Assembly (NCBI GenBank): GCA_963807635.1
Contig: CAWEDJ010000007.1
Location: 1 to 64,000 of the forward strand
Length of the DNA: 64,000 nt
Source: an uncultured cyanobacterium
GTDB taxonomy: Bacteria; Cyanobacteriota; Cyanobacteriia; Cyanobacteriales; Microcystaceae
Reading direction: 5' to 3'
Shown: in pieces, positions 19,764-40,289 of the stretch
Numbering within the stretch: the stretch's first letter is position 1
How the letters are laid out: the number at the start of each line of letters is the position of its first letter
Notes under the pieces: model-generated
What the model was told of the DNA's origin: nothing
The model's database searches: none
What the model saw: only the letters and a program-made list of their open reading frames with translations
Made by a program: the position numbers and the translations under genes

Positions 19764-20261
19764 TCATAAAGATTTAAGTTCACTCTCAATAACCTTTAAT
19801 AATTCATAAATTTGCGAAAAATTGTTTTTAGTTATAGATGGAGCATCATAGAGAACAGTGATCCCTTTAAGATGGGTATGTGCGGCTTTATTCCTTTTTT
19901 CTATCAGGTTATTCAGTAATCTTATGTAATAATCTAATACTATGCGTCGCTTTAATCTTCTTTCTAATTTCTCTACAGACACTATACCAATACTATCAAG
20001 CAACATTTTACGGAAATGACTTTCATAAGAAAAGCCACTATTTTTCTTGATAATTTGCTTTAGATATTTTTTGTTTTTTTCATCTTTTAGCTTATGATTA
20101 ACATGGTGAAGAATAATATTATCCATACTTTGCTCAATCCAACCACATAGTTCTAAAAGGGCAAGTTTAGAATAGTAGATTGCTTTTTTTTGACTAGTCG
20201 ATGAGTTATAAAGTTTGTCAAGTTCTTCAAGGGTTTCCGTAATATAAGATTTGCTAATCAT
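19764..20261 (-). CDS. HEPN domain protein (putative RNase)
   Basis: RNKAAH = Rx4H motif; helical; low GC. Confidence 0.8.
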   Translation of the reverse strand: MISKSYITETLEELDKLYNSSTSQKKAIYYSKLALLELCGWIEQSMDNIILHHVNHKLKDEKNKKYLKQIIKKNSGFSYESHFRKMLLDSIGIVSVEKLERRLKRRIVLDYYIRLLNNLIEKRNKAAHTHLKGITVLYDAPSITKNNFSQIYELLKVIESELKSL

Positions 20262-20375
20262 GTATTGTGTAAAAAATAATTTTCAAATATATGATTAGTT
20301 AATTTATTATAATAAAAATACTAGCGTCAGTCATAATAAGATAAGTTAGGTGCTTATAATAAGGTAATAAAACTG

Positions 20376-21530
20376 TTAAGTCCCAAAAATTTTAATAGCT
20401 TCATTCAATCGAGATTGAACCTTAGCTTTCTGTAATAGTCCTCCTGCTAGATTTTTAATGTCATAAGGAGGGGATTGACGTAATTGTACAAATTTTGCAC
20501 GAAAATCTTCTTGAGAAATAGTTTCTAGATAATCCAAATTTTTAGCAACACCAATCAGTAAACCTTCCATAATAACCTTACTAATATTGGATAATGATTT
20601 TCTATCAGGAAAATGCTTATGAATTAAGTCGATAGTTCTCTTAAATAAAGTATATTTTTCTACTTTAGTATTTTCACTAATATTTTTATATTTCTTCATG
20701 TAGTCATTAAGGAATTTAGATAATCGTCCATGATAATTGTTATATTCATCAAAAAAGGCGAAAAAGCGGAGTACAAATTCTTCATTTTCAAATCTATTTT
20801 TTAATTCATTTTCTTGAAAATCTTTTTTCTTTTTACTGACTGATCTTTTCACGGGAGTTATTTTTATCCAATTTTCATAATTGACACAGTCTTTTAATAA
20901 ATTATTGAAAACTCCTTGATAAATACCATTTCTAATTTCCTGATTATTTAAGCGAGTTCCCCCCGTATTTAAGCGATGGAAGATTGTAAATAAATAATCC
21001 ATGTGCTTTGGTTTACTGGAATCAAAACGAATAACAGTAATCGGTAAAGATAAGTTTTCGACTCGACTATATAATTCGGGGTAATCTTGTTTGATTTCCT
21101 GAACAGTCTTTCCCTTAATCCTTGGATCGATATCTTCAAGATTAGAAAGTCTCCAATCAGTATCTTCTTTTAAAAATTTAATAATAGTTGAAATTCTTTG
21201 TAGCCCATCAACAACTAAACGCTTATCAGTTTTATAATCCAAGCTAATAGACATACTTGGGATCGGAAGTTGTTTAATCAAACTATCGATAAAACGAGTT
21301 TGAGCGGCTTCTGTCCAAATCGATTGTCGTTGAAAGTCAGGATCAATTTTTAACTGTTGTTTTGTAACCATACGCAAAATATCGGCACAGGATCTCAATT
21401 CATTAAACGCAATAATATCACTTGGCGGTTGTTCAATCGAATCCTCATTTTCGTAAGATTCTTCATACTCTCTTTCTATCTGTTTTTCAAGATCACGTTC
21501 CTTTTGGGGAGGAATAGCTAAATTAACCAC
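20376..21530 (-). CDS. DUF262 (ParB-like/GmrS) domain protein
   Basis: PDFQR, FIDSL, VVDGLQR, IFHRLNTGG. Confidence 0.9.
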   Translation of the reverse strand: MVNLAIPPQKERDLEKQIEREYEESYENEDSIEQPPSDIIAFNELRSCADILRMVTKQQLKIDPDFQRQSIWTEAAQTRFIDSLIKQLPIPSMSISLDYKTDKRLVVDGLQRISTIIKFLKEDTDWRLSNLEDIDPRIKGKTVQEIKQDYPELYSRVENLSLPITVIRFDSSKPKHMDYLFTIFHRLNTGGTRLNNQEIRNGIYQGVFNNLLKDCVNYENWIKITPVKRSVSKKKKDFQENELKNRFENEEFVLRFFAFFDEYNNYHGRLSKFLNDYMKKYKNISENTKVEKYTLFKRTIDLIHKHFPDRKSLSNISKVIMEGLLIGVAKNLDYLETISQEDFRAKFVQLRQSPPYDIKNLAGGLLQKAKVQSRLNEAIKIFGT

Positions 21531-27377: not shown

Positions 27378-27535
27378 AGTTTATCCGCGATCGCCGAAAT
27401 ACCGATGCTCTGACGCAAAACAATTTGTAAGGTTTTGCAACGAAATATGCGATTCTTTCAAGAAAAAAATTTTGGTTTCATCGTCTAAGTTGTTCTCATG
27501 GGAAATACAATTACTTAAATTTATGATGGCAAAAA

Positions 27536-29272
27536 TCAATATAAATTAAGAAAAATACCGACAATGATAGCTAAAGTTCCGAAAATAATTGATAAAAAAC
27601 GATGGTAACTTTTAATGATTGTGCCATTTTCAGTGCTTAAGTAACTTAGATCAAGCCAAGCCGTTTCCTTTCGACGGAACCAACCGACAGCATTTACTTC
27701 CATACCCATTAGTTTTTCCACTTTTGATATACCAAAGAAAAAATTTCCAATCAAACCAAAGCGTGAAGAATAGCGAAGAGGTAGCAATCCCGTTAAATCT
27801 TGAAACTGGATGTCAGAAGAAAAAATAAAACCTGACTCTCTACGACCAATTAACTTGCCTTTCAGTTTTACTGGCTTTCCCCATACAGGACTAGCATAGG
27901 GATTAGACATTAAACTCAAAATATCCATTTTAGGTGCAGAAAAAAATAGGGGAAATTGGGCGAAAGTTTTACAGAAAATTCCTATTCCTAATCCGATCAA
28001 AGAATAACCCAAAATTAAACTTAGGTGAAAATCATTTACGGAAAAAATCAGTCCTATTGATACGCCTAAAAGTAAACCGATCGCTTCAGCAAAATAGAGA
28101 ATAATATCTATTAATAAACCTCCATAAAGTTTGTCTTTAGATAAAATTTTTCCTACTCTGACAATTTTTGCCATATCAAATTCGGTGGTTAAATCTAACT
28201 GCTCTGCGTAGTTGCTTAAGGCTCGAATTCGTTTGCCTGTCAAAGGATGGGTTGAGCGTAATTCCATCCAGCCCCGCCAAGGGTTAAACAAATCCCAAAG
28301 TAAGACTTGATCTAATGGGTCAGAGGACTCACTATTTTGAGAAGTCGCCCCTATTGTTACGGCAGATTTATAATCATAGATTCCTAAAGCTCTGGTACTT
28401 TCCATTAAAATGTTTGATTTTGGATTTTTTTGCTTTTCTTCGACTAATCCATAACCAATTTTCACCAAGGCACGCGAAAGAGCATTAGGATTGCCTGTTA
28501 CTTCAGCAGAAAAATGATCAGCAAAATATTCACGGACACGCGACAAATAAAGTAACCAATAAGTGCCTATTTTATAAAAAATAAAAGCCGCTAATGCTAA
28601 AACTTGAAATAGTTCTTTTCAATTATTATTTTGCCACATCTTTCTATAGCAAAAAATGTAAAGTGAATAGCAAATCTGGATTAGAGTAGAGGCTAGGGTC
28701 ATTATGGCGAAATCCCAATGAACAATATGCCCTAATTCATGAGCATAAACTGCGGCGATTTCATCATCGTTGAGATAGGTAAATAAACCTTCACTGACAA
28801 TAATTCTGGCTTTGTTAGGAATAGTTCCGTAGGTAAAAGCCGTGGGGTTCTGATCATTAATAATTCCTAAACTAGGTTCTTTTAGATTTTTATTAATGCA
28901 AACTCTTCTAATAATTAGAGCCGCTTCTGGACTACGCCGAGCAAGTTCATTTAAATCAAGCCAACGAGTTTGATACAGAAAGTTTTGAGTGATGTCTAAA
29001 ATTGAAGGAGCAATTAAAAAACTGATTAAGTTAAAGATAAGCGTCGAACTAACAGCGATCGCTAATCCCTGAGCAGGATTAAAATTACCTTGAATAAAAA
29101 TGATTGCGAGGATCAGACTTAGAACAAGAGCCGCCATTAGCAAGAAGGTAAGACTGGAGGCAAGAACAAGACTTCCGTAGCCTTTAATCAATGGAAGTCG
29201 GACACTTCCCGATGAGACTCTAGAAGGTTTCGTATTAATCGGTTGATTCGACGCATTAAACCGTAAGTTCAT
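27536..29272 (-). CDS. M48/HtpX-like membrane zinc protease, apparent frameshift near 28620
   Basis: PTAFTYG, HELGH, SRVREYFAD, STHP. Confidence 0.85.
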
Positions 29273-29714: not shown

Positions 29715-29774
29715 CTGCTTTTATTCCTCAAAATTAAGTTGCTTATATTCACCTATCTGCTTTAAAAATAAAGG

Positions 29775-29868
29775 TTTCGCAAAACTTAACATTTCTTTAC
29801 GTTGCAGTAGCGATCGCCAAAATCCGAGTCTAAAGGGTGATTGTAAAGTTTTGTAACAAAACGCGAAA
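29775..29868. promoter_or_regulatory. Divergent pair of GTAAAG-N14-GCGAAA motifs
   Basis: 29775-29800 on minus strand and 29843-29868 on plus strand, each facing its operon. Confidence 0.65.
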
Positions 29869-29922
29869 TTCTTTCAAAAGGCTCTGTTAACTCCCTGTAG
29901 TTATCAAATTTCAAACCTTGCG

Positions 29923-30639
29923 ATGCTAAACAAACGATTTGTAAAACGCTTTATCTATTGGTTTATCGGCAAACGGGCGGGAACAACGCTCTTTGGAATG
30001 TGGCATTGGCTTTGGGGAGTTCCTGTGGAAAAAGGCGGAAAAATTGCCGTTGAAGTGGCCAGGGAATCCTTGGAATCCATGCAACTGGCAGTGGCAAACT
30101 TAACCGATGCGGGGGCACGAGTAATCGCGGCTCAGGCAACAGCACGGGCAAAATATGAAGCCAAACGTCAGGAATTTACCCAATATCAACAACAAGCATT
30201 ACTCGCTAGTCAGCAAGGCAATCAGGAAGCAGCACGTTTGGCTATGACTAAGGCAATTATGACGGAAAAAGTATTGCCAACTTTAGCAAACCAACTGGAA
30301 CAAACCGAAAAAATGGTGATCGCCGTTAAGGAAAAATTAAGCCGAGAACGGGAAAAATTAGAGACCTATAAGTTTGAAATGCAAAACTTAAAAGTCCTAG
30401 CAGAAGTGAACGAAGCTTTGGGAGGAATTAGTGACATTGACAGTCAACTTAATCTCGAAATTCTCCAAGATCAATTTGCGATCGCCCAATCTGCGATTGA
30501 ACGCCAAGGCCATCATGTTACAGCAAAGGCAGAATTAAGCGAAAATCCAGCCGAAAAACTGGAATATACGATTAATCAAATGACCCTAGATGATGAAGTT
30601 GAGCGTCGTCTGAAAGCCTTAGTTAACGTTGATAATTAA
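29923..30639 (+). CDS. PspA/IM30 family protein (divergent N-terminus)
   Basis: Coiled coil; GNQEAARLAM; DDEVERRLKAL. Confidence 0.8.
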   Translation: MLNKRFVKRFIYWFIGKRAGTTLFGMWHWLWGVPVEKGGKIAVEVARESLESMQLAVANLTDAGARVIAAQATARAKYEAKRQEFTQYQQQALLASQQGNQEAARLAMTKAIMTEKVLPTLANQLEQTEKMVIAVKEKLSREREKLETYKFEMQNLKVLAEVNEALGGISDIDSQLNLEILQDQFAIAQSAIERQGHHVTAKAELSENPAEKLEYTINQMTLDDEVERRLKALVNVDN

Positions 30640-31997
30640 TGAGGAATTTTACTATGAAAGTTTTCGCTAAAATCCCACCTATACTCTGGTTCAGCATAGC
30701 GACATTTTTAGGATTGACCAGTTTTAATATTATTCGTTCTTACGGAAATCCGAACCAGACTTATTTTAGTGGTGGTAATAATCAACTAATTTTAGATGTT
30801 TCTAATGCAGATAAAAAACAGGGAATTGAATCCTTTAAACAAGGTGATTATGATGGAGCAATTAAGCATTTTAAAGCTAGTTTAAGTCAAGAAAAAAATG
30901 ATCCTGAAACATTAATTTATCTCAATAATGCTAAAATCAACCAAGATTTTTTTAAAATTGCGGTGGTGGTTCCTATTAGTAGCAATCCAAATATTTCTCA
31001 GGAAATTTTGCGCGGTGTGGCCCAAGCTCAAGATGAAATTAATCAGCAAGGAGGCATTCAAGGTAAACCCTTAAAAGTTTTAATTGCAGATGACGGCAAT
31101 TTACCTGAAAATGCTCAAGAAATTGCCACTCAATTAGTCGCAGATGAGTCAATCATTGCGGTAGTTGGTCACAATGCCTCGAATGCGTCTCTTGCGGCGG
31201 CTCCTATCTATCAAAAAGGTGGAGTAGTGATGATTACACCGACTAGTTTTGCCAATAATTTATCAGGCTTGGGGGATTATATTTTTCGAGTTGTACCTTC
31301 CACTAAGGCGATGGTTCAACCCTTAGTCAATTATTTTACGCGCCTACCCCAAAATCCTAATTTAGCGATTTGTTATGACTCTCAAGCTCCTGACAATGTT
31401 TCTTTTAAGGATGAATTTTTAGCAACTTTTTTAGCAAAAGGGGGTAAGTTAGTTCCTCTCGTCTGTGATCTCTCTAGTCCTAATTTTGAACCTCAAAAGA
31501 TGATCAATCAGGCAATAAGTCAGGGAGCAAAAGGCTTATTGATGACTCCCCACATTGACCGCTTAGACCAGGCGATCGCCCTTGCCCAAGCAAACCAAAA
31601 TCAATTAACCTTATTAAGTAGTCCAACACTTTATACGATTAAAACCTTAGAACAGGGTCAAAATCAGGTCAAGGATTTAGTTGTTTCGATTCCCTGGCAC
31701 CCTCAAAGTAATCAAAATAATGCCTTTATTACCGATAGTTATCGTTATTGGGGAGCGCGGGTGAATTGGCGGACAGCCATGGCCTACGATGCAACTTGGG
31801 CGATCGCCAAGGGATTACGGCAAAATTCAACGAGGGAAGGCTTAAAAAATACATTGCACAATCCTAGTTTTTTCGTGTCGGGAGCCACAGGAACTTTTAA
31901 ATTTTTACCAAGTGGCGATCGTCTCGGTTCAGCCTATCTTGCTCAAATCCAATCTACAGGTCAGGGTAATGATTTTGTTTTACTTAAATCTCCTTAA
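30639..31997 (+). CDS. Membrane-anchored LivJ-like (Peripla_BP_6) binding protein with TPR-like segment
   Basis: NDPETLIYLNNA, LRGVAQAQ, VGHNAS, TAMAYDA. Confidence 0.85.
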   Translation: MRNFTMKVFAKIPPILWFSIATFLGLTSFNIIRSYGNPNQTYFSGGNNQLILDVSNADKKQGIESFKQGDYDGAIKHFKASLSQEKNDPETLIYLNNAKINQDFFKIAVVVPISSNPNISQEILRGVAQAQDEINQQGGIQGKPLKVLIADDGNLPENAQEIATQLVADESIIAVVGHNASNASLAAAPIYQKGGVVMITPTSFANNLSGLGDYIFRVVPSTKAMVQPLVNYFTRLPQNPNLAICYDSQAPDNVSFKDEFLATFLAKGGKLVPLVCDLSSPNFEPQKMINQAISQGAKGLLMTPHIDRLDQAIALAQANQNQLTLLSSPTLYTIKTLEQGQNQVKDLVVSIPWHPQSNQNNAFITDSYRYWGARVNWRTAMAYDATWAIAKGLRQNSTREGLKNTLHNPSFFVSGATGTFKFLPSGDRLGSAYLAQIQSTGQGNDFVLLKSP

Positions 31998-32078
31998 TTT
32001 TTCGCTCAAAATTTTTTAAAAAGGGGGATGATACAAATATTAATTTCTCCAAAAACTTCCGATATCAAGGAACTTACT

Positions 32079-32747
32079 ATGCTAAAAGATGAGAATTTAA
32101 ATACTCACCTGTTGCGATTAATCCAAGAAACCTGTGGACAATCGCCGAATACCTTAGAGCGTCAACGGGGCTTAAATCAGTTAGTTTTGCTAATTCAAAA
32201 ATCAGGAAAACTCTATCAAGATCATCACTTATTATCAATAGATTATGAAGATGCACTACAAAAAACCTGGCTCTATTTTTGTCGCAATCTCTGTGAAGCT
32301 GTAACGGCTAAAAATGGCCCCTATGATGCCGAAAAAGGAAATATTTTTACTTGGTTAAATGCTTATCTCAAAAAACGCATCTTAGATGCTCATCTTGCTA
32401 GTCAGCAAGCCAAAGAAATGATTGTCTCACCTCGCCTCGATGACCAAGGCAATATCATTGATCCTGTGGAAAATATTCCTAATCCTAAACTCTCGGAAAA
32501 TAGGGCTGATAAAATGTTGACAAAAATTCAGCAATGGCTACAGTCCCAAGAAAAACGATTGCGTCGGATTCATCTCCGCGATCGCCCCGAAATTAATGCC
32601 TATGTGTTAATTTTGCGTCGTTTACCGCCAGAGGAAACCACCTGGGAAACCTTAGCCCAGGAATGGAATATTTCTCGGTCAACCCTAGCGAACTTTTATC
32701 AACGTCGCTGTTTACTGTTATTACAAGAATTACGAGATCAATTCTAA
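32079..32747 (+). CDS. ECF/HetZ-like sigma-70 family factor
   Basis: Region-2-like YEDALQKTW...FTWLNAYLKKRILD; C-terminal HTH WETLAQEWNISRSTLANFYQRRC. Confidence 0.7.
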   Translation: MLKDENLNTHLLRLIQETCGQSPNTLERQRGLNQLVLLIQKSGKLYQDHHLLSIDYEDALQKTWLYFCRNLCEAVTAKNGPYDAEKGNIFTWLNAYLKKRILDAHLASQQAKEMIVSPRLDDQGNIIDPVENIPNPKLSENRADKMLTKIQQWLQSQEKRLRRIHLRDRPEINAYVLILRRLPPEETTWETLAQEWNISRSTLANFYQRRCLLLLQELRDQF

Positions 32748-32786
32748 TCAAACTGTTTACCAATAATTCTAGCTTTTAAATTTCCC

Positions 32787-33863
32787 ATGATTACCAACAA
32801 TCTTACTAATGCGACTATTACCATTCCCCTGTCAGAAGGCGATCGCGCTTTAGCTCAAAGTTTTGCTCAACAACAATTAACCGAAACTAAAACCAATCAA
32901 GTTTATCTTAATACTTTAGCGGTTCTAGCGATGAATCATTATCTGGAATTATTAGAAATTCCTACTAATTTAAAACAGAGTCAATGCTGGTCTGTGATTA
33001 ACCAATTTTGTGCCGATCTTGCCGATCTAAACTTACCAAAACTGGGCTTTTTAGAATGCCGCCCCATTTCCATCCATCAAGACTTTTGCCAGATTCCCCT
33101 CGAAGTAATGAGCGATCGCATTGCTTATTTCATTGTCCAAATTAGTGAGGATAGAAAGGCAGGAAAATTATTGGGATTTGTCGTCGATCCCCAAAGTCCT
33201 CGCATTACAGTAGAGCAGTTAGATTCTCTCGATAATTTTTTAATTTTTCTGGCAAATTATCAACCGAAAATTAAACTCTACCAGTGGCTAGAAAATCAAA
33301 TTGATGAACAGTGGCAAGCTCTAGAAACCTTACTTTTAAATAAAAAATTAGCGTTTCGCCATTCATCAGTAACCTCTCAAAGTTTGCCCGATTTAGTGAA
33401 TACGCTATACTTACAAGATGAATTATCTCCCCCCTCGCAATTAACAGCAACCCAATCCCTTGAGCAATTACTAAACTTAACAAACAATGAAGAATTACGC
33501 TGGCAAGTAGCCGAAATTCTCTGGAATATAGACCCCCATAACCCGATTTTAAATCTAAGACGGATTCTTGATCTGGGGGCTTATTTTGGGGGAACCAGTA
33601 TTGGTTTGATGGTCGGACTTTTGCCAAAATCAGATGATCAAATTTCCTTGCTCTTTCGTCTCTATTGTCTCAGCGATCGCGGCTATTTACCTCCAGGGAT
33701 TATCCTAACAGGTCTTGATGAACAATTAAATCCTTTTTTTGAAATTAAAGCGAGGGAAAACGATGATTACATCCAGTTTAAATGTGTGGCGGGTTTTGAT
33801 GAAGAATTTAGCATTAAAATTTCCTTAGGAGATACCCGTATTATCAAGCATTTTATGACTTAA
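32787..33863 (+). CDS. DUF1822 family protein
   Basis: QVYLNTLAVLA, LECRP, LLGFV, LYQWL, LAFR; C-terminal beta-rich domain YLPPG...DDYIQ. Confidence 0.85.
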   Translation: MITNNLTNATITIPLSEGDRALAQSFAQQQLTETKTNQVYLNTLAVLAMNHYLELLEIPTNLKQSQCWSVINQFCADLADLNLPKLGFLECRPISIHQDFCQIPLEVMSDRIAYFIVQISEDRKAGKLLGFVVDPQSPRITVEQLDSLDNFLIFLANYQPKIKLYQWLENQIDEQWQALETLLLNKKLAFRHSSVTSQSLPDLVNTLYLQDELSPPSQLTATQSLEQLLNLTNNEELRWQVAEILWNIDPHNPILNLRRILDLGAYFGGTSIGLMVGLLPKSDDQISLLFRLYCLSDRGYLPPGIILTGLDEQLNPFFEIKARENDDYIQFKCVAGFDEEFSIKISLGDTRIIKHFMT

Positions 33864-33888
33864 TAAGCAAGCTAAATTTGAATAACTT

Positions 33889-36390
33889 ATGACTAAAGAT
33901 ATTATTTTTATTGTGGCTGAAGATGGGAGTTTTGAGAGGGGCTTTTCTTTAACTTTACAAATTCGTGAACAGAGTCGTCCAATTATCAACGAAATGACTG
34001 TTCAATTATCTCCCAATCCTGATTTATTTAATCTTCAAAATCAGCTACGTCAGAACTATCAAAATTGGGGAATCGGCCATCGTTGGTGGCGCGGTCAACG
34101 CATTATGGCAGTGGAAGGTCAAATTACCCATGTGGCATCCTACCAAGATTGTTTAAATGTTGCTGATGATCTCCGTAAACAATTTAATCAATGGTTAAAT
34201 CAACCCTCTTTACGTCAACTAGAAAGGTTGATTTTAAGTCATGTCAATGGTCAGGAATCTGTCCGTTTTATCCTGAAAACTTCCCATCTAGGTTTGCAAC
34301 GTTTACCTTGGCATCTTTGGGATTTTATTGAAGAAAGTTATCCCGACGCAGAAGTCATTATTGGAACAAATGTTGCTCCGTCTTCTAATCCTCTTCCCTA
34401 TCCCGTTAAAATCTTGGTGATTTTGGGGAATGATGAACAAATTGATATTGAAATAGACAAAGATATTATCACTCAATTGCCCCATACCCAAGTCGAAACT
34501 TTGCGTCAACCTGAACGTCATCAATTAACCGCAACATTATTAGGAAAATCTTGGGATATTCTCTTTTTTGCGGGTCATTCTTCTACTGATGATCTTAACG
34601 AACTTGGTTTTATCTATCTCAATAATCACGATAAACTAACTCCCCAGGAATTAGATCCAATTCTGCGTAAAGCGGTTAGAAATGGCTTACAGTTAGCAAT
34701 TTTTAATAGTTGTGATGGTTTAGGATTGGCGAAGGGGCTAACCCGTTTAAAAACCCCCGTTCCCCATATTATTGTGATGCGAGAACCCATCCATGATCAG
34801 GTGGCTCAACTGTTTTTAAGACATTTTTTAAACCTTTTTAGTCAAGGGTCTATTCTCGAAGACGCTCTGGCCAATACTCGTCATTATTTAACCAGCATGG
34901 AACGCAATTCTCCCTGTGTTTCCTGGTTGCCCATTTTATTGCAAAATCCTGAAACACGGCCTTTAAAATTTCCCCCAATTCTTCCCCCACTTGTTGACCC
35001 GACGATTTGGGACAAAATTAAACAGCAGCGATCGCCTATTTTAATGCTTTTATTGGCAATCATCGGTTTAGGAAGTGGTTTGTTATGGAAATCCCTGAAT
35101 CCCCCTAACGCTTTAGAACATCGTTTAAGCATCGGAGAAGAGGTGTTATTTACTCGTCAAAATAATACAGCTAAAATTCAGGGAACAAAAGCTTTTAAAA
35201 AGCAAGATTATCAAAGTGCGATCGCCTATTTTAGCCAATCATTACAACAGAACAAAAATGATCCTGAAACGGTTATCTATTTGAATAACGCTCGTGCTTT
35301 GATGCAGGGAAATTATGATCGCATTGCAGTTAGTGTCCCTATCGGTATTAGTCCAGAAATTGCTGAAGAAATACTGAGAGGGGTCGCAACCTTTCAAGAT
35401 AAATTAAACACTCAACAAATGGGAAAAAATAGGCGATCATTCGTGATTGAAATTGCTAATGATGATAATAATTCAGAAATAGCAAAAGAAATTGCCCAGT
35501 ATTTTGTTAAAGAGACTGCCATCCAAGCAGTGATTGGTCATAATGCCTCCGATGCTAGTGTGGCGGCGGCTCCGATTTATCAAAAAGGGGGTCTCGTGAT
35601 GTTAAGTCCTACCTCTTTTTCTGATCGCCTAATTACTTTGGGAGATCATATTTTTCGGATGGTTCCCCTCAGTTCCTTAACCGATAAATTGGCAAATTAT
35701 ATTGTTAAAACGACTCCAAAAGCGAGGGTTGCAAGCTGTTTTGATGGACAAGCGATTGATAATGCTTCCTTTGCGACGAGAGTTGCTTCTAAATTAATTG
35801 ATGAAAAGGTTTCTTATATTAATATTCCCTGTAACTTTTCCGATCGCAAATTTAAAGCGGATCAAAAAATTAATGAAATCATTAATCAGGGGATAGATAC
35901 TCTCATTTTAGCTCCCCACGTTGATCGCATTGAAAAAGCATTAGAAATGGCCAAAGCGAATCAAGGTCGCTTAACACTTTTTGGAAGCAGTACCCTACTC
36001 ACGGGTTTAACTTTAACGGAAGGACAAGCCGTTAATGGCTTAGTCTTAGTAGTACCTTGGTATAAAGATCAGTCTGATGCTTTTAGTCAAGAACTGGCGA
36101 AAAAATGGGGTATTACCCGCAATTGGCGTACTGCTTTATCCTATGATGCAACCGTCGCGATCGCCACCGCTTTATCCATCAATCCGACCCGTAACGGAAT
36201 TGCTCAGGTTTTGCGCCGTCAGGATTTTAAAGGTAAGGGCGTGACTGGAGATATTCAGTTTTTACCAAGCGGTGATCGTATTCCCACCCCAACAACAGGC
36301 GATTTTGTACAGGTACAACCGCAGGAAGGTCAATATCAATTTGTACTGATGGCTCCTCTTAGCAGGCGTAATCTTAACGAATCAAATTAA
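33889..36390 (+). CDS. CHAT (caspase-like) protease - TM - TPR-like - periplasmic binding domain receptor
   Basis: RLPWHLW, LFFAGHS (His), FNSCDG (Cys); TM ILMLLLAIIGLGSGLLW; IGHNAS binding domain. Confidence 0.9.
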   Translation: MTKDIIFIVAEDGSFERGFSLTLQIREQSRPIINEMTVQLSPNPDLFNLQNQLRQNYQNWGIGHRWWRGQRIMAVEGQITHVASYQDCLNVADDLRKQFNQWLNQPSLRQLERLILSHVNGQESVRFILKTSHLGLQRLPWHLWDFIEESYPDAEVIIGTNVAPSSNPLPYPVKILVILGNDEQIDIEIDKDIITQLPHTQVETLRQPERHQLTATLLGKSWDILFFAGHSSTDDLNELGFIYLNNHDKLTPQELDPILRKAVRNGLQLAIFNSCDGLGLAKGLTRLKTPVPHIIVMREPIHDQVAQLFLRHFLNLFSQGSILEDALANTRHYLTSMERNSPCVSWLPILLQNPETRPLKFPPILPPLVDPTIWDKIKQQRSPILMLLLAIIGLGSGLLWKSLNPPNALEHRLSIGEEVLFTRQNNTAKIQGTKAFKKQDYQSAIAYFSQSLQQNKNDPETVIYLNNARALMQGNYDRIAVSVPIGISPEIAEEILRGVATFQDKLNTQQMGKNRRSFVIEIANDDNNSEIAKEIAQYFVKETAIQAVIGHNASDASVAAAPIYQKGGLVMLSPTSFSDRLITLGDHIFRMVPLSSLTDKLANYIVKTTPKARVASCFDGQAIDNASFATRVASKLIDEKVSYINIPCNFSDRKFKADQKINEIINQGIDTLILAPHVDRIEKALEMAKANQGRLTLFGSSTLLTGLTLTEGQAVNGLVLVVPWYKDQSDAFSQELAKKWGITRNWRTALSYDATVAIATALSINPTRNGIAQVLRRQDFKGKGVTGDIQFLPSGDRIPTPTTGDFVQVQPQEGQYQFVLMAPLSRRNLNESN

Positions 36391-37002: not shown

Positions 37003-37146
37003 TTCTATTTAACAAGCAAATCGTCAACTACAATGGGTGATACTAAAAACTTCTCTCAGATCTTGAACATCGGCAGGGGAGTCGCCATTACCCAGCAAAA
37101 CACCGCTAACCGTAATGGTCATTGATTTTTTGTGGAATTGAAATTC

Positions 37147-40100
37147 ATGGCAACATTACACGGTAGTTGGATTATTCAAGGCGAATCCGTCGGTTATTTA
37201 TGGATTTGGGCAGAAGCTTGGCGTGATATGAGTGAAACTATCGAACCCGAAGCCGAGTCAGAAATTCGTCCCCATCCCTTCAATTTGGACAAAGAGAGCT
37301 TGAAAGCTTGCTTACAGGAATTGACAGGAAAAATCCCACCCGATTTCGATTCCCTTTGGCAAACAGAAATTATCAGCTTACCGAGCCAAACCGTCAAAAA
37401 AGTGACCTATCCCCTACTGTCGGGGCAAGATAGCCGCGAATTGAAACCTACGAGTCTGAGTCTCCATCCTTGGCAAGTTCAGGGAATTCGCCTCGATGCT
37501 TTGGCGACAGGTGAATTTTTTAAAAACGTTTCTTTGGGTTTAGACAAAAAAAGTCTTTTCGGTAATGATTTACAATTTTTCAGCCATCTCTATCGTTGGA
37601 GTTTGGATTTAATTGTTCGCCGTAAGTTTTTACCTGTTATTCAAGTCACCCCATCGAGGAATCAAGCCTGTTGGTATCCCCTTATTGATAGCACCTTAGA
37701 TCAAACTCGTCTAGCCAAATTTAGTCAATTAATGCCGCCCGTTTGTTGGAGTTATGGAGAGCTTTCTGAACAAACTAATAATCCAGATTTTCTATTATTA
37801 GCCCAGAAAATTATTTTGTCTTTTCTGCAAGCAATGGTGAATGCCCAAATTATCACAAAAAGTCCTGCTTTAAATCTAAGCAAAGAAACGCCCCTACAAA
37901 CTTGGCTAGAAAGTTTAACCAATCCTAAAACCTTAATCACTGGAGAAAATAATCAAATTCAAAAAATAGTTGCGGCTCTCAATAATTGGCAATTACCCAT
38001 TCAAGATTATCTGGTGAGTCCCGACAATCAACAATTAGGGAAACATCAATTTCGAGTTTGTTTTGTCCTAGAACCACCCAATCAGGAAGAGATTTTTTCA
38101 GGAAATACTCATTGGCGATTAAATTATGTTTTACAAGCGTTAGATAATGCCAGCTTTTGGGTAAATGCCGATACCATTTGGCAACAACAGAGTGAACAAT
38201 TAGTCTGGGAAAATCGGGTTATTGAACAACCCCAGGAAACCCTATTAAAAGGATTAGGATTAGCGTCTCGACTGTATGCTCCCATTGCATCTAGTTTAGA
38301 AGAATCTCAGCCTAGTTATTGCGCCCTGGATTCGATTCAAGTCTATGAATTTATCAAAGCCTCTGCTTGGCAATTAGAGGATAATGGACTAGGAGTGATC
38401 GTACCGCCCAGTTTGACGAGTGGCGGAGAAACAAAACGCTTAGGCTTACAAATTCAAGGAAAAGTTACTCCTAAAAAAGGGGAAAGATTGAGCCTCAATT
38501 CCCTTGTTCAATACAATTTACAATTAATCATCGGCGATCGCGTTATTTCAGAAAAAGACTTTAAACAATTACTCGAATCAAAAATCTCCGTTGGTTGAAA
38601 TTAATGGAGAATGGATTACCCTCCAACCTGCCGATGTTCATGCGGCCCAACGTATTTTAAATAAATCCAATGAACCCCTGAGTTTATCCGTTGAAGATGC
38701 CCTGAGAATTAGTATTGGGGAAAATCAAACCTTAGCAAAATTGCCCGTTGTTAACTTTGAAGCATCGGGAGTATTGCAAGAATTTATTCATAATATTACG
38801 GATAATCAGGCAATTCAACCATCGAAAATCCATCAGGTTTTAAAGGAACATTACGACCCTATCAAGCGCGGGGTGTGGGTTGGTTAGCCTTTCTAGAAAA
38901 ATGGGGATTGGGTTCCTGTTTAGCGGATGATATGGGGTTAGGAAAAACGCCACAATTGTTGGCTTTTATGCTCCATTTAAAATCAGAATCGATGTTAACC
39001 AAACCCGTATTAATTGCTTGCCCAACATCGGTTATTAATAATTGGGAACATGAAATCAAAAAATTTGCACCCGAGTTTATCGATTCATATTCATCATGGA
39101 GATAAACGAAGTAAGGGAACAGATTTTGCTAAAACGATTCACCATAAAAATTTGATTTTAACCAGTTATGCTCTCCTGTATCGAGATAGTAAAACGCTCG
39201 AAAAAATTGATTGGCAGGGTATTGTTTTAGATGAGGCTCAAAATATTAAAAATCCCCAATCAAAGCAAGCCCAAGCGGTTCGTCAACTTAAAGCAGGTTT
39301 TCGGATCGCGCTAACAGGAACACCTGTGGAAAATCGATTATCGGAACTCTGGGCAATTTTAGATTTTCTCAATCCCAATTTTCTGGGAACTCAAGCTTTT
39401 TTCCAAAAACGTTTTGCCACTCCGAATCGAAAAATTCGGCGATCGCCAATCATTACAAGTGTTGCGATCGTTGGTGCGACCTTTTATTCTGCGCCGTTTA
39501 AAAACGGATACGAGTATTATTCAAGATTTACCCGAAAAACAAGAAATGACCGTCTTCTGTGGACTTTCCTTAGAACAGGCAAATCTGTATGAAGCGTTAG
39601 TGGAACAATCCCTAGCAAAAATTGAAGATGCAACGGGAATTCAACGTCAGGGTTTAGTTTTAGGATTATTGGTAAAACTAAAACAAATTTGTAATCATCC
39701 CTCCCAATATTTAAAAGAAAAGTTGTTAGAAAATGCGGCTCTTTCAGGAAAGTTATTGCGATTACAGGAAATGTTAGAAGAGGTTGTTGATCAAGGTGAT
39801 CGCGCCTTAATTTTTACCCAATTTGCCGAGTGGGGACATTTATTAAAACCCTATCTAAATAAACACTTTAATCAAGAAGTTTTATTTTTACACGGAGGAA
39901 CTTCCCGACAAGCCCGACAGGTAATGATTGATCGTTTTCAAAATGATCCTGATGCACCCAAGATTTTCATTCTTTCTCTCAAAGCAGGGGGAACGGGGTT
40001 AAATTTAACCAGAGCAAATCATGTTTTTCATATTGACCGTTGGTGGAATCCTGCGGTGGAAAATCAAGCAACGGATCGGGCTTTTCGGATTGGTCAAAAA

Positions 40101-40289
40101 CGCAATGTCCAAGTCCACAAATTTGTCTGTACTGGTACGTTAGAGGAAAAAATTAATGACATGATTGAGAGTAAAAAACAACTCGCAGAGCAAACCGTTG
40201 ATGCAGGAGAAAACTGGTTAACGGAACTCGATACAGATCAATTGCGGAATTTATTGTTATTAGATAGAAACGCGATTATTGATGAATAG
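37147..40289 (+). CDS. SNF2/SWI2 family helicase, four apparent frameshifts
   Basis: [23 protein letters not shown] and [11 protein letters not shown] distributed over five ORFs. Confidence 0.9.

Follow-up and report, generated by a model that had tools for sequence, protein, structure and literature searches.

The question raised by this locus is whether three adjacent genes of an uncultured cyanobacterium, coding for a divergent extracytoplasmic function (ECF)-like sigma factor, a DUF1822 protein, and a transmembrane (TM) receptor with a caspase-like CHAT protease domain, form a pathway in which a protease controls transcription. The genes lie in a stretch of 64,000 nucleotides (positions 1 to 64,000 of contig CAWEDJ010000007.1, GenBank assembly GCA_963807635.1), hereafter the window. 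An initial annotation, made from the DNA letters alone, had described three co-oriented and closely spaced genes, which is borne out by the open reading frames (ORFs), all on the + strand and separated by 39 and 25 nt:

32079 (or 32028)-32747, + strand: divergent ECF-like sigma factor, 222 aa (239 aa if the start is at 32028), from the ORF list and the fold model
32787-33863, + strand: DUF1822 protein, 358 aa, from PF08852
33889-36390, + strand: CHAT receptor, 833 aa, from Pfam domains and hydropathy

A module of this kind has been predicted before. In the passages of their computational study that treat it, Kaur, Iyer, Burroughs, and Aravind (eLife 2021; PMC8195603) described EACC2-caspase proteins with variable sensors, encoded next to genes for ECF sigma factors and DUF1822 proteins, and proposed a scheme in which stimulus-induced autoproteolysis leads to sigma-dependent transcription. 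With that module, as presented there (PMC8195603), the locus has in common a caspase/CHAT domain that follows a constant N-terminus, a C-terminal sensor that lies behind TM helices and varies widely, and neighboring genes for sigma and DUF1822; in the survey reported below, the CHAT receptor ends in one of six types of C-terminal module or in none, and both neighbors are in place. The initial annotation knew of no mechanistic description of such a system. This is right as regards experiments, our literature search (with subscription journals outside its coverage) having found no experimental study of the module, whereas both the association and the protease-to-sigma scheme go back to the 2021 prediction; what is added here is a probable unit of five genes, a candidate promoter that is unique in the genome, and a model of the DUF1822 fold. 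It is very likely that the locus is a copy of the cyanobacterial "EACC2-caspase receptor + ECF-like sigma + DUF1822" module, and probable that this module represents a protease-controlled transcription pathway. That DUF1822 is the cleaved inhibitor is a more tentative proposal, possible rather than probable.

The conservation of the gene order was surveyed starting from the sigma gene, with one genome per species; of the 514 stretches that matched the search pattern, 496 code for relatives of the sigma-like protein, and the counts rest on the best 80 stretches with flanks of 8 kb. Four of the 80 loci stop at a contig edge. In all the 76 evaluable ones a DUF1822 gene lies downstream on the same strand, within 300 nt in 71 cases, after a small ORF in three, and after a TPR-CHAT gene in two; Pfam recognized DUF1822 in the first downstream ORF of 72 loci and one gene further in the other four. 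The N-terminal module of the receptor follows DUF1822 in 63 out of 72 evaluable loci (57 adjacent, 6 at a distance of 1.2-5.7 kb), and nine loci are without it in the flank. The CHAT domain was detected by Pfam in 58 loci, with C-terminal modules represented by Peripla_BP_6 (31), CHASE2 (16), TPR (4), PsbP_2 (2), NACHT (1), PBP_like_2 (1), or none (3). Since the synteny holds in 76 out of 76 evaluable loci, the trio is not a product of chance, and the conserved linkage of the three genes, which the reading of the initial annotation required, is confirmed. The nearest of these loci is from a Snowella metagenome-assembled genome (MAG), with 97% identity.

Some variants of this arrangement are worth recording. 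In some Pseudanabaena-type loci a gene for an M48 or C39 peptidase is inserted between DUF1822 and CHAT; one locus (L034) harbors two tandem genes for CHAT receptors with a periplasmic binding protein (PBP) domain, another (L139) two modules back to back, and a third (L070) has a HisKA domain on the DUF1822 protein, followed by a C39 peptidase-TPR protein of 1706 aa. A locus labeled as belonging to an Actinomycetota MAG (L036) carries a typical cyanobacterial module together with the DNA motif described below, and its contig may be mis-binned.

A second sample was anchored on DUF1822 and consisted of 40 loci taken down the ranked list, from the best ~150 of ~490 matches, with 343 lower-scoring ones left out. 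The sigma gene is directly upstream in 30 of these loci, separated by one gene in 2, and missing from the 4.5-kb flank in 8; a CHAT module is directly downstream in 30. Most sigma factors of the DUF1822-anchored loci are of a longer form (~395 aa), in which sigma2 and sigma4 are separated by an insert. This long form is unambiguously a member of the sigma-70 family (TIGR02937 at 60-113 bits in 10/10 tested). Among the 30 best-scoring DUF1822 loci, the long sigma is adjacent in 27 (plus one at 304 nt) and CHAT in only 6. The conserved core is thus the pair of sigma and DUF1822, often without CHAT, and this near-obligate adjacency is compatible with DUF1822 being a cognate regulator. In many of the CHAT-less pairs with a long sigma (L002-L031, L124-L163), the next genes encode a GFO_IDH_MocA oxidoreductase (3 tested), a DUF4870 protein, or a TPR protein.

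The receptor can be divided into the following regions:

33889-34410, + strand: constant N-terminal region, residues 1-174, conserved over 58 homologues with differing C-termini
34411-34938, + strand: CHAT (caspase-like) protease domain, PF12770
35029-35097, + strand: single TM helix, residues 381-403, from the hydropathy scan
35155-36279, + strand: outer sensor, a TPR-like pair (423-474) and a type I periplasmic binding domain (506-797), Peripla_BP_6

The CHAT domain (residues 198-346, E 5.4e-12, 46 bits against a cut-off of 24) retains the catalytic dyad, as had been claimed, with His230 in FAGHS (codon 34576-34578) and Cys275 in FNSCDG (codon 34711-34713). Both residues are invariant in 58/58 aligned homologues and stand in the order of clan CD. 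Conservation among these homologues extends over the N-terminal 380 residues, of which residues 1-174 appear to correspond in position to the EACC2 region of Kaur et al.; no TPR was found by Pfam before the CHAT domain. The one TM helix of the initial annotation agrees with the single hydrophobic stretch, and the Lys/Arg residues preceding it suggest that the protease is cytoplasmic. The proposed outer part, TPR-like plus LivJ-like, was recovered: Peripla_BP_6, C-terminal to the TM stretch, scores 58.3 bits against a cut-off of 31.7 (ANF_receptor, 33 bits), whereas the TPR matches at residues 423-474 are all below their cut-offs and the LivJ subfamily model is far under its own (39 against 477).

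The first gene had been described as sigma-70/HetZ-like. The sigma half of this description is supported by the predicted structure and the HetZ half is not, no HetZ match being found; the sole het-named match is HetF, on the CHAT protein. The AlphaFold2 model (predicted local distance difference test, pLDDT, 88.4) displays sigma2 at about residues 8-115, a variable linker, and sigma4 at about 138-222, i.e., the two-domain fold without sigma3 that characterizes ECF factors. Sigma factors dominate the top rows of a Foldseek search with this model, none of them at E <= 0.001, and hhalign against two ECF sigmas of the same genome gave colinear, weak alignments (E 0.0019 and 0.017). At E <= 0.001, 297 relatives of ~215 aa were retrieved, and the name given by NCBI to relatives is sigma-70 family RNA polymerase sigma factor. 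Since homologues span 87-93% of the 239-aa ORF, the start at 32079 is likelier than that at 32028. Overall, the product appears to be a sigma factor, faintly so by sequence and more clearly by predicted structure. The hydropathy scan revealed no hydrophobic stretch in either this protein or the DUF1822 protein, the latter being soluble.

The linker between the two sigma domains is conserved, acidic, and Pro-rich, and four Cys residues are nearly invariant (Cys68 and Cys72 in 81/81 sequences, Cys19 and Cys211 in 80/81). Three of them, with the CRNLC motif among them, belong to sigma2 and the fourth to the final sigma4 helix; together they could make up a site for a metal or for redox chemistry that connects sigma2 and sigma4. 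A single longer protein containing the sigma domain was found, P0121 (824 aa), in which the whole domain with all four Cys (residues 640-824) stands behind a SAV_2336 N-terminal domain (SAV_2336_NTERM, 381.7 bits against a cut-off of 200), with neither DUF1822 nor CHAT fused to it. The sigma module is thus also employed as an output in a system of a different type.

The assignment of the second gene to DUF1822, already made in the initial annotation, is firm: PF08852 matches the full length of the protein (E 4.6e-71, 240 bits against a cut-off of 25). The family is above its cut-off in 258 out of 401 sampled genomes of the phylum, and the locus is the single DUF1822 locus of its host genome. 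The AlphaFold2 model (pLDDT 88.5) predicts an N-terminal domain (about residues 30-159) with a restriction-endonuclease-like fold (VIA-align matches), a candidate PD-(D/E)xK domain, then a linker (about 165-195) of low model confidence that we read as flexible, a short helical insert of HEAT-like type (197-248), and an immunoglobulin (Ig)-like beta-sandwich (255-358). The linker contains the invariant pair Phe190-Arg191, kept in 46/46 sequences having the column. In the corresponding passages of Kaur et al. (PMC8195603), DUF1822 is instead a TPR protein; here the domains are nuclease-like at the N-terminus and Ig-like at the C-terminus, and the helical insert is short. A DUF1822 profile gave 0 matches among PDB sequences up to E 10, residues 1-165 retrieved no usable match from the ESM Atlas, and no longer DUF1822-containing protein (628-2000 aa) was found, which is weak evidence.

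The predicted fold bears on how DUF1822 might act. A motif D80...E90-C91-R92, placed on the expected nuclease-like strands, is present in 40/40 partners of short sigmas and absent from the other 30 aligned DUF1822 sequences. Since the motif is confined to the short-sigma subfamily, we read the fold as a binding scaffold and not as an active nuclease; the active-nuclease reading was dropped because this acidic/basic motif is not family-wide. A model of the short-type DUF1822 scores 299-451 bits beside short sigmas (n = 10) and 0-178 bits, with a median of 0, beside long sigmas (n = 52). The DUF1822 subfamily therefore tracks the sigma type, i.e., the partner diversifies with its sigma, and shared ancestry alone could yield much of this match.

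DUF1822 might be a positive partner and not an inhibitor, acting as an adaptor that tethers the sigma to the receptor or aids its binding to DNA or RNA polymerase. The protease would then act on itself, in line with the autoprocessing of Kaur et al., or on the sigma, for instance in the linker of the latter. The restriction of D80...E90-C91-R92 to one subfamily makes a family-wide catalytic or DNA site unlikely, and the gene order speaks against this alternative too, because a sigma gene followed by a tightly coupled partner is the usual layout of sigma/anti-sigma pairs. We consider a positive role of DUF1822 unlikely.

The unit to which the trio belongs is larger than first described, since it probably includes two more co-oriented genes upstream (29923-31997):

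29923-30639, + strand: PspA/IM30-like protein, 238 aa, first gene of the cluster, from near-cut-off PF04012 and TIGR02977
30639-31997, + strand: free TM-PBP, a membrane-anchored TPR-like and Peripla_BP_6 protein, 452 aa, from Peripla_BP_6 and its paralogy to the receptor

The unit would thus probably comprise five genes (29923-36390), in the order PspA-like, free TM-PBP, sigma, DUF1822, and CHAT receptor. The gaps between them are, in order, -1, 81 (from 32079), 39, and 25 nt, the PspA-like stop and the free-PBP start sharing 1 nt, and no terminator-like site was found on the + strand between the five genes. Metatranscriptome contigs of related strains, 90-97% identical (four libraries from three studies), cover parts of all five genes and span three junctions (PspA-like/PBP, PBP/sigma, and sigma/DUF1822). 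Such bridging contigs are a weak hint at co-transcription, as neither strand nor start is visible in them and carry-over of DNA is possible.

The PspA-like protein lies just below the cut-off of PF04012 (33.2 bits against 33.9, profile positions 30-213 of 220) and matches TIGR02977 with E 1.4e-4; a search with the window protein found a single copy of its gene in the genome. The free PBP protein (Peripla_BP_6, E 1.7e-38) has one hydrophobic stretch, at residues 8-26, and is 42% identical over 451 aa to residues 376-821 of the receptor, TM helix included; judging from this similarity, it is a CHAT-less paralogue of the TM and outer part, i.e., a receptor without protease. PspA-like homologues were found near the module in 10 of the 80 loci, eight of which, from five named cyanobacterial families and one unclassified MAG, carry the PspA-like and free-PBP pair and two the PspA-like gene alone. 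The gene is not obligatory, being found, with the window protein as query, in two of five module-holding genomes, once far from the module.

The two parts of the receptor also occur in other combinations. In two Pseudanabaena loci no binding domain is present on the CHAT protein, and DUF1822 and CHAT are separated by the free PBP pair; the Nostocales receptors (1240 aa) have two binding domains in tandem. In a quick tree, the second of these domains was split from the first (support 100) and fell in a clade with the free paralogues (84), not as their specific sister. The second domain would therefore not be a recent copy of the first, and the argument for a gene fusion is suggestive only.

Upstream of the first gene of the unit there is one further element:

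29841-29872, + strand: promoter-like site TTGTAAAGTTTTGTAACAAAACGCGAAATTCT, 51 nt upstream of the PspA-like ATG

The underlying motif was derived by aligning the regions upstream of PspA-like genes, where a common block TGTAAAG-N3-TTGTAA(C/A)-N4-5-(G)CGTAA is present in 9/10 evaluable loci. Over the 80 loci (1.098 Mb), a regular expression for its core gave 42 matches, compared to 0-11 in 20 shuffles. With a scoring matrix built on 21 sites from other taxa, the site of the window reaches 34.7 bits, the runner-up in the 4.03-Mb genome 19.3, and three shuffled genomes the 20-24-bit bins. The site can be read as an ECF-type promoter, with TGTAAA as putative -35, a spacer of 16 nt, and CGAAAT (CGTAA in the consensus) as putative -10, and might be read by the sigma of its own unit. 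Gapped word pairs sought without a preset motif in front of the 80 sigma genes were A/T-rich words only, in at most 21 loci, compared to 9-13 in shuffles.

The motif lies 56-380 nt before PspA-like genes, sigma genes (e.g., L048, L049, L066, and L081), CHAT genes (L043, L075, and L078), or other neighbor genes. Scores of at least 22 bits are attained in 18 out of 31 PBP-type loci (8 out of 20 outside the training set), 2 out of 16 CHASE2-type loci, and 1 out of 10 independent short-sigma loci, and by no site in 51 long-sigma loci. By these counts, the motif is both patchy and specific for the sigma subfamily closest to the window.

This patchiness, with about half of the related loci lacking the motif, would fit a site recognized by another DNA-binding regulator, for example a response regulator, and not by the sigma of the unit. 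The direct repeat TGTAA-N5-TGTAA would suit such a regulator as well, its two copies starting 10 nt apart, i.e., one helical turn, and the conservation extends beyond a simple -35/-10 pair. However, the site accompanies the module across several cyanobacterial families, stands before the first gene of the unit, be it PspA-like, sigma, or CHAT, and is absent from the 51 loci with the other sigma type; moreover, TGTAAA-N16-CGTAA resembles ECF promoters such as that of Bacillus subtilis sigma-X (TGTAAC-N17-CGAC). We thus regard recognition by another regulator as somewhat unlikely, while giving it real weight.

As to other occurrences of the motif, two weaker copies are found no more than 2.5 kb from the strong one, at 29771-29802 on the - strand (16.0 bits) and at 27425-27456 on the + strand (15.6 bits). 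Their scores are within the range of the shuffles, so that the clustering alone is notable. The - strand copy faces the divergent genes for a small membrane protein and an M48 peptidase, and is largely kept in two other loci (L032 and L035). In Nostocales, the motif precedes a gene for a membrane protein of ~270 aa upstream of the sigma gene (L037, 5172-6017; also L047, L061, L065, L069, L072, and L079), whose look-alikes in the Atlas are TIGR04222/UCP032817-like clusters (score 0.92), to be taken as a lead only.

The explanation that accounts best for these data is a receptor-caspase-sigma/DUF1822 cascade with feedback, although, taken as a whole, it falls slightly short of an even chance. 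The outer binding domain of the receptor would sense a small molecule outside the cell, possibly together with the CHAT-less paralogue, and this would switch on the cytoplasmic caspase-like protease. Proteolysis would then alter the soluble pair of sigma and DUF1822, presumed to be in contact; in the simplest form, the substrate would be DUF1822, cut in its flexible linker, and its effect would be inhibitory, so that the sigma is freed. The freed sigma would read the single promoter-like site before its own operon, raising the output of the PspA-like membrane protein and of all the pathway parts in a positive feedback. A more elaborate version resembles a death-receptor pathway: the two outer binding domains would pair on the ligand, bringing caspases together and activating them; DUF1822, as an adaptor of nuclease and Ig folds, would be cut after the invariant Arg of the linker; the sigma, with a four-Cys metal or redox site common to its sigma2 and sigma4 domains, would be freed; and a single private promoter would sustain the feedback of one operon with a PspA-like membrane-repair protein at its head. 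This version is speculative, and we think it improbable in its entirety.

Several findings weigh against the cascade, in addition to the patchy motif and the direct repeat described above. Regarding the sigma, Pfam assigned no family to the protein, and the curated sequence models remain out of reach: TIGR02937 gives 17 bits against a cut-off of 42.9, and among 35 family members it appears in 9 at E <= 0.05, and Sigma70_r2 in 2, all under cut-off. Furthermore, the family profile found no sigma factor among PDB sequences, the top match being IWS1 (E 0.1). Regarding DUF1822, neither Pfam, which gives DUF1822 alone, nor the fold searches recognized an anti-sigma domain, and the best fold matches are nucleases and Ig-like domains. 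As for the protease, Kaur et al., in the passages on their scheme, propose autoproteolysis of the receptor and not cleavage in trans (PMC8195603). Finally, an adjacent CHAT gene is missing from 24 of the 30 top-scoring DUF1822 loci and from 10 of the 40 sampled ones; with so many sigma-DUF1822 pairs lacking it, CHAT cannot be the general controller of DUF1822.

The same genes might otherwise form a conflict or cell-suicide system of the EACC/caspase sort, in which the receptor would detect an attack or a kin signal, the caspase would trigger defense or death, and DUF1822 would be a nuclease-type effector. The nuclease-like N-domain of DUF1822, the fusion of a sigma-domain relative to the SAV_2336 N-terminal domain in P0121, and the NACHT found in place of a sensor in one locus (L056) are in line with this possibility, and the relevant passages of Kaur et al. 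group these genes with apoptosis-like immunity systems (PMC8195603). None of the five proteins, however, matched a PADLOC defense model, the putative nuclease motif is not family-wide, and the commonest sensors (Peripla_BP_6 in 31 loci, CHASE2 in 16) bind small molecules outside the cell. In addition, the only strong motif site of the genome fronts the module and a PspA-like membrane protein, an arrangement that looks like envelope signaling. A defense or suicide function is, in our opinion, quite improbable.

In classical ECF sigma/membrane anti-sigma systems such as sigmaE-RseA, an envelope signal leads to proteolysis and to release of the sigma, and an ECF-type promoter lets the operon regulate itself. 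In those systems the anti-sigma sits in the membrane and is cut by site-1 and site-2 proteases; at this locus it is the protease that spans the membrane, and the candidate regulator is soluble.

Two CRISPR-linked cascades are closer in their logic. In type III-E CRISPR, according to the sections of PMC9825189 that describe it, Csx29 cleaves Csx30, which binds RpoE. The likeness to this Craspase (Cas7-11/gRAMP-Csx29, TPR-CHAT) would lie in a soluble partner protein of its own that couples an ECF-type sigma to a CHAT-family protease (PMC9825189). Unlike in Craspase, there is no CRISPR effector, the trigger would be a membrane receptor and not a target RNA, CHAT stands behind an EACC2-like region and not behind TPRs, and DUF1822 is without PADLOC likeness. 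The independence from CRISPR asserted by the initial annotation thus stands, given the lack of PADLOC matches and of any cas family among the 16 ORFs of at least 140 aa over 17-52 kb. In the second cascade, that of type III CRISPR as outlined in part of a preprint (bioRxiv 10.1101/2024.05.08.593097), CalpL cleaves the anti-sigma CalpT and CalpS is released. A signal-activated protease that cuts the anti-sigma of a sigma/anti-sigma dimer, so that the sigma is released to RNA polymerase, is the feature in common (bioRxiv 10.1101/2024.05.08.593097), the anti-sigma role of DUF1822 being a candidate one. CalpL, on the other hand, is a SAVED-Lon protein with a Lon-type protease and cytosolic parts that responds to cyclic tetra-adenylate (bioRxiv 10.1101/2024.05.08.593097), while here a caspase-like protease is joined to a trans-membrane sensor.

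As far as the literature is concerned, neither CHAT nor caspase is mentioned in the portions of the ECF reclassification paper considered (PMC7826278). The main-text passages of Kaur et al. name CHASE2 and other sensors, and contain no Peripla_BP_6 sensor, PspA-like gene, free PBP paralogue, or DNA motif (PMC8195603).

If the cascade holds, it would represent a widespread cyanobacterial route from an outside chemical to transcription that requires neither a kinase nor CRISPR. In running on a caspase-like protease, it would follow the logic of the Csx29 and CalpL cascades linked to CRISPR and, at a greater distance, that of animal death receptors. The locus is a convenient test case, in that no other DUF1822 locus is present in the genome, the dyad is intact, and the candidate promoter is unique.

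The neighboring genes encode IleRS, a Band_7 protein, a TPR protein, a split M48 peptidase, a broken SNF2 helicase, a LarC-type nickel insertion protein, and PdxJ. The M48 peptidase (HtpX-like, HELGH; - strand, 27536-29272) is broken into two ORFs, 28619-29272 corresponding to positions 9-102 of the Pfam profile and 27536-28546 to positions 135-185. Two M48 ORFs are likewise found in the Snowella relative (L032), and the split may be due to a frameshift, a pseudogene, or an assembly error. A specific link between this peptidase and the M48 genes inserted in the Pseudanabaena modules was considered and is not claimed, the identity being merely 28% over 189 aa. The SNF2-family helicase (DUF3670, SNF2-rel_dom, and Helicase_C; + strand, 37132-40289) is split into at least four ORFs, and a single ORF of 1049 aa occupies the equivalent position in L032. 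Lastly, a GmrSD_N protein (384 aa) and a HEPN_RiboL-PSP protein (165 aa) are encoded by adjoining genes on the - strand (19764-21530) and represent a candidate defense pair unrelated to the module.

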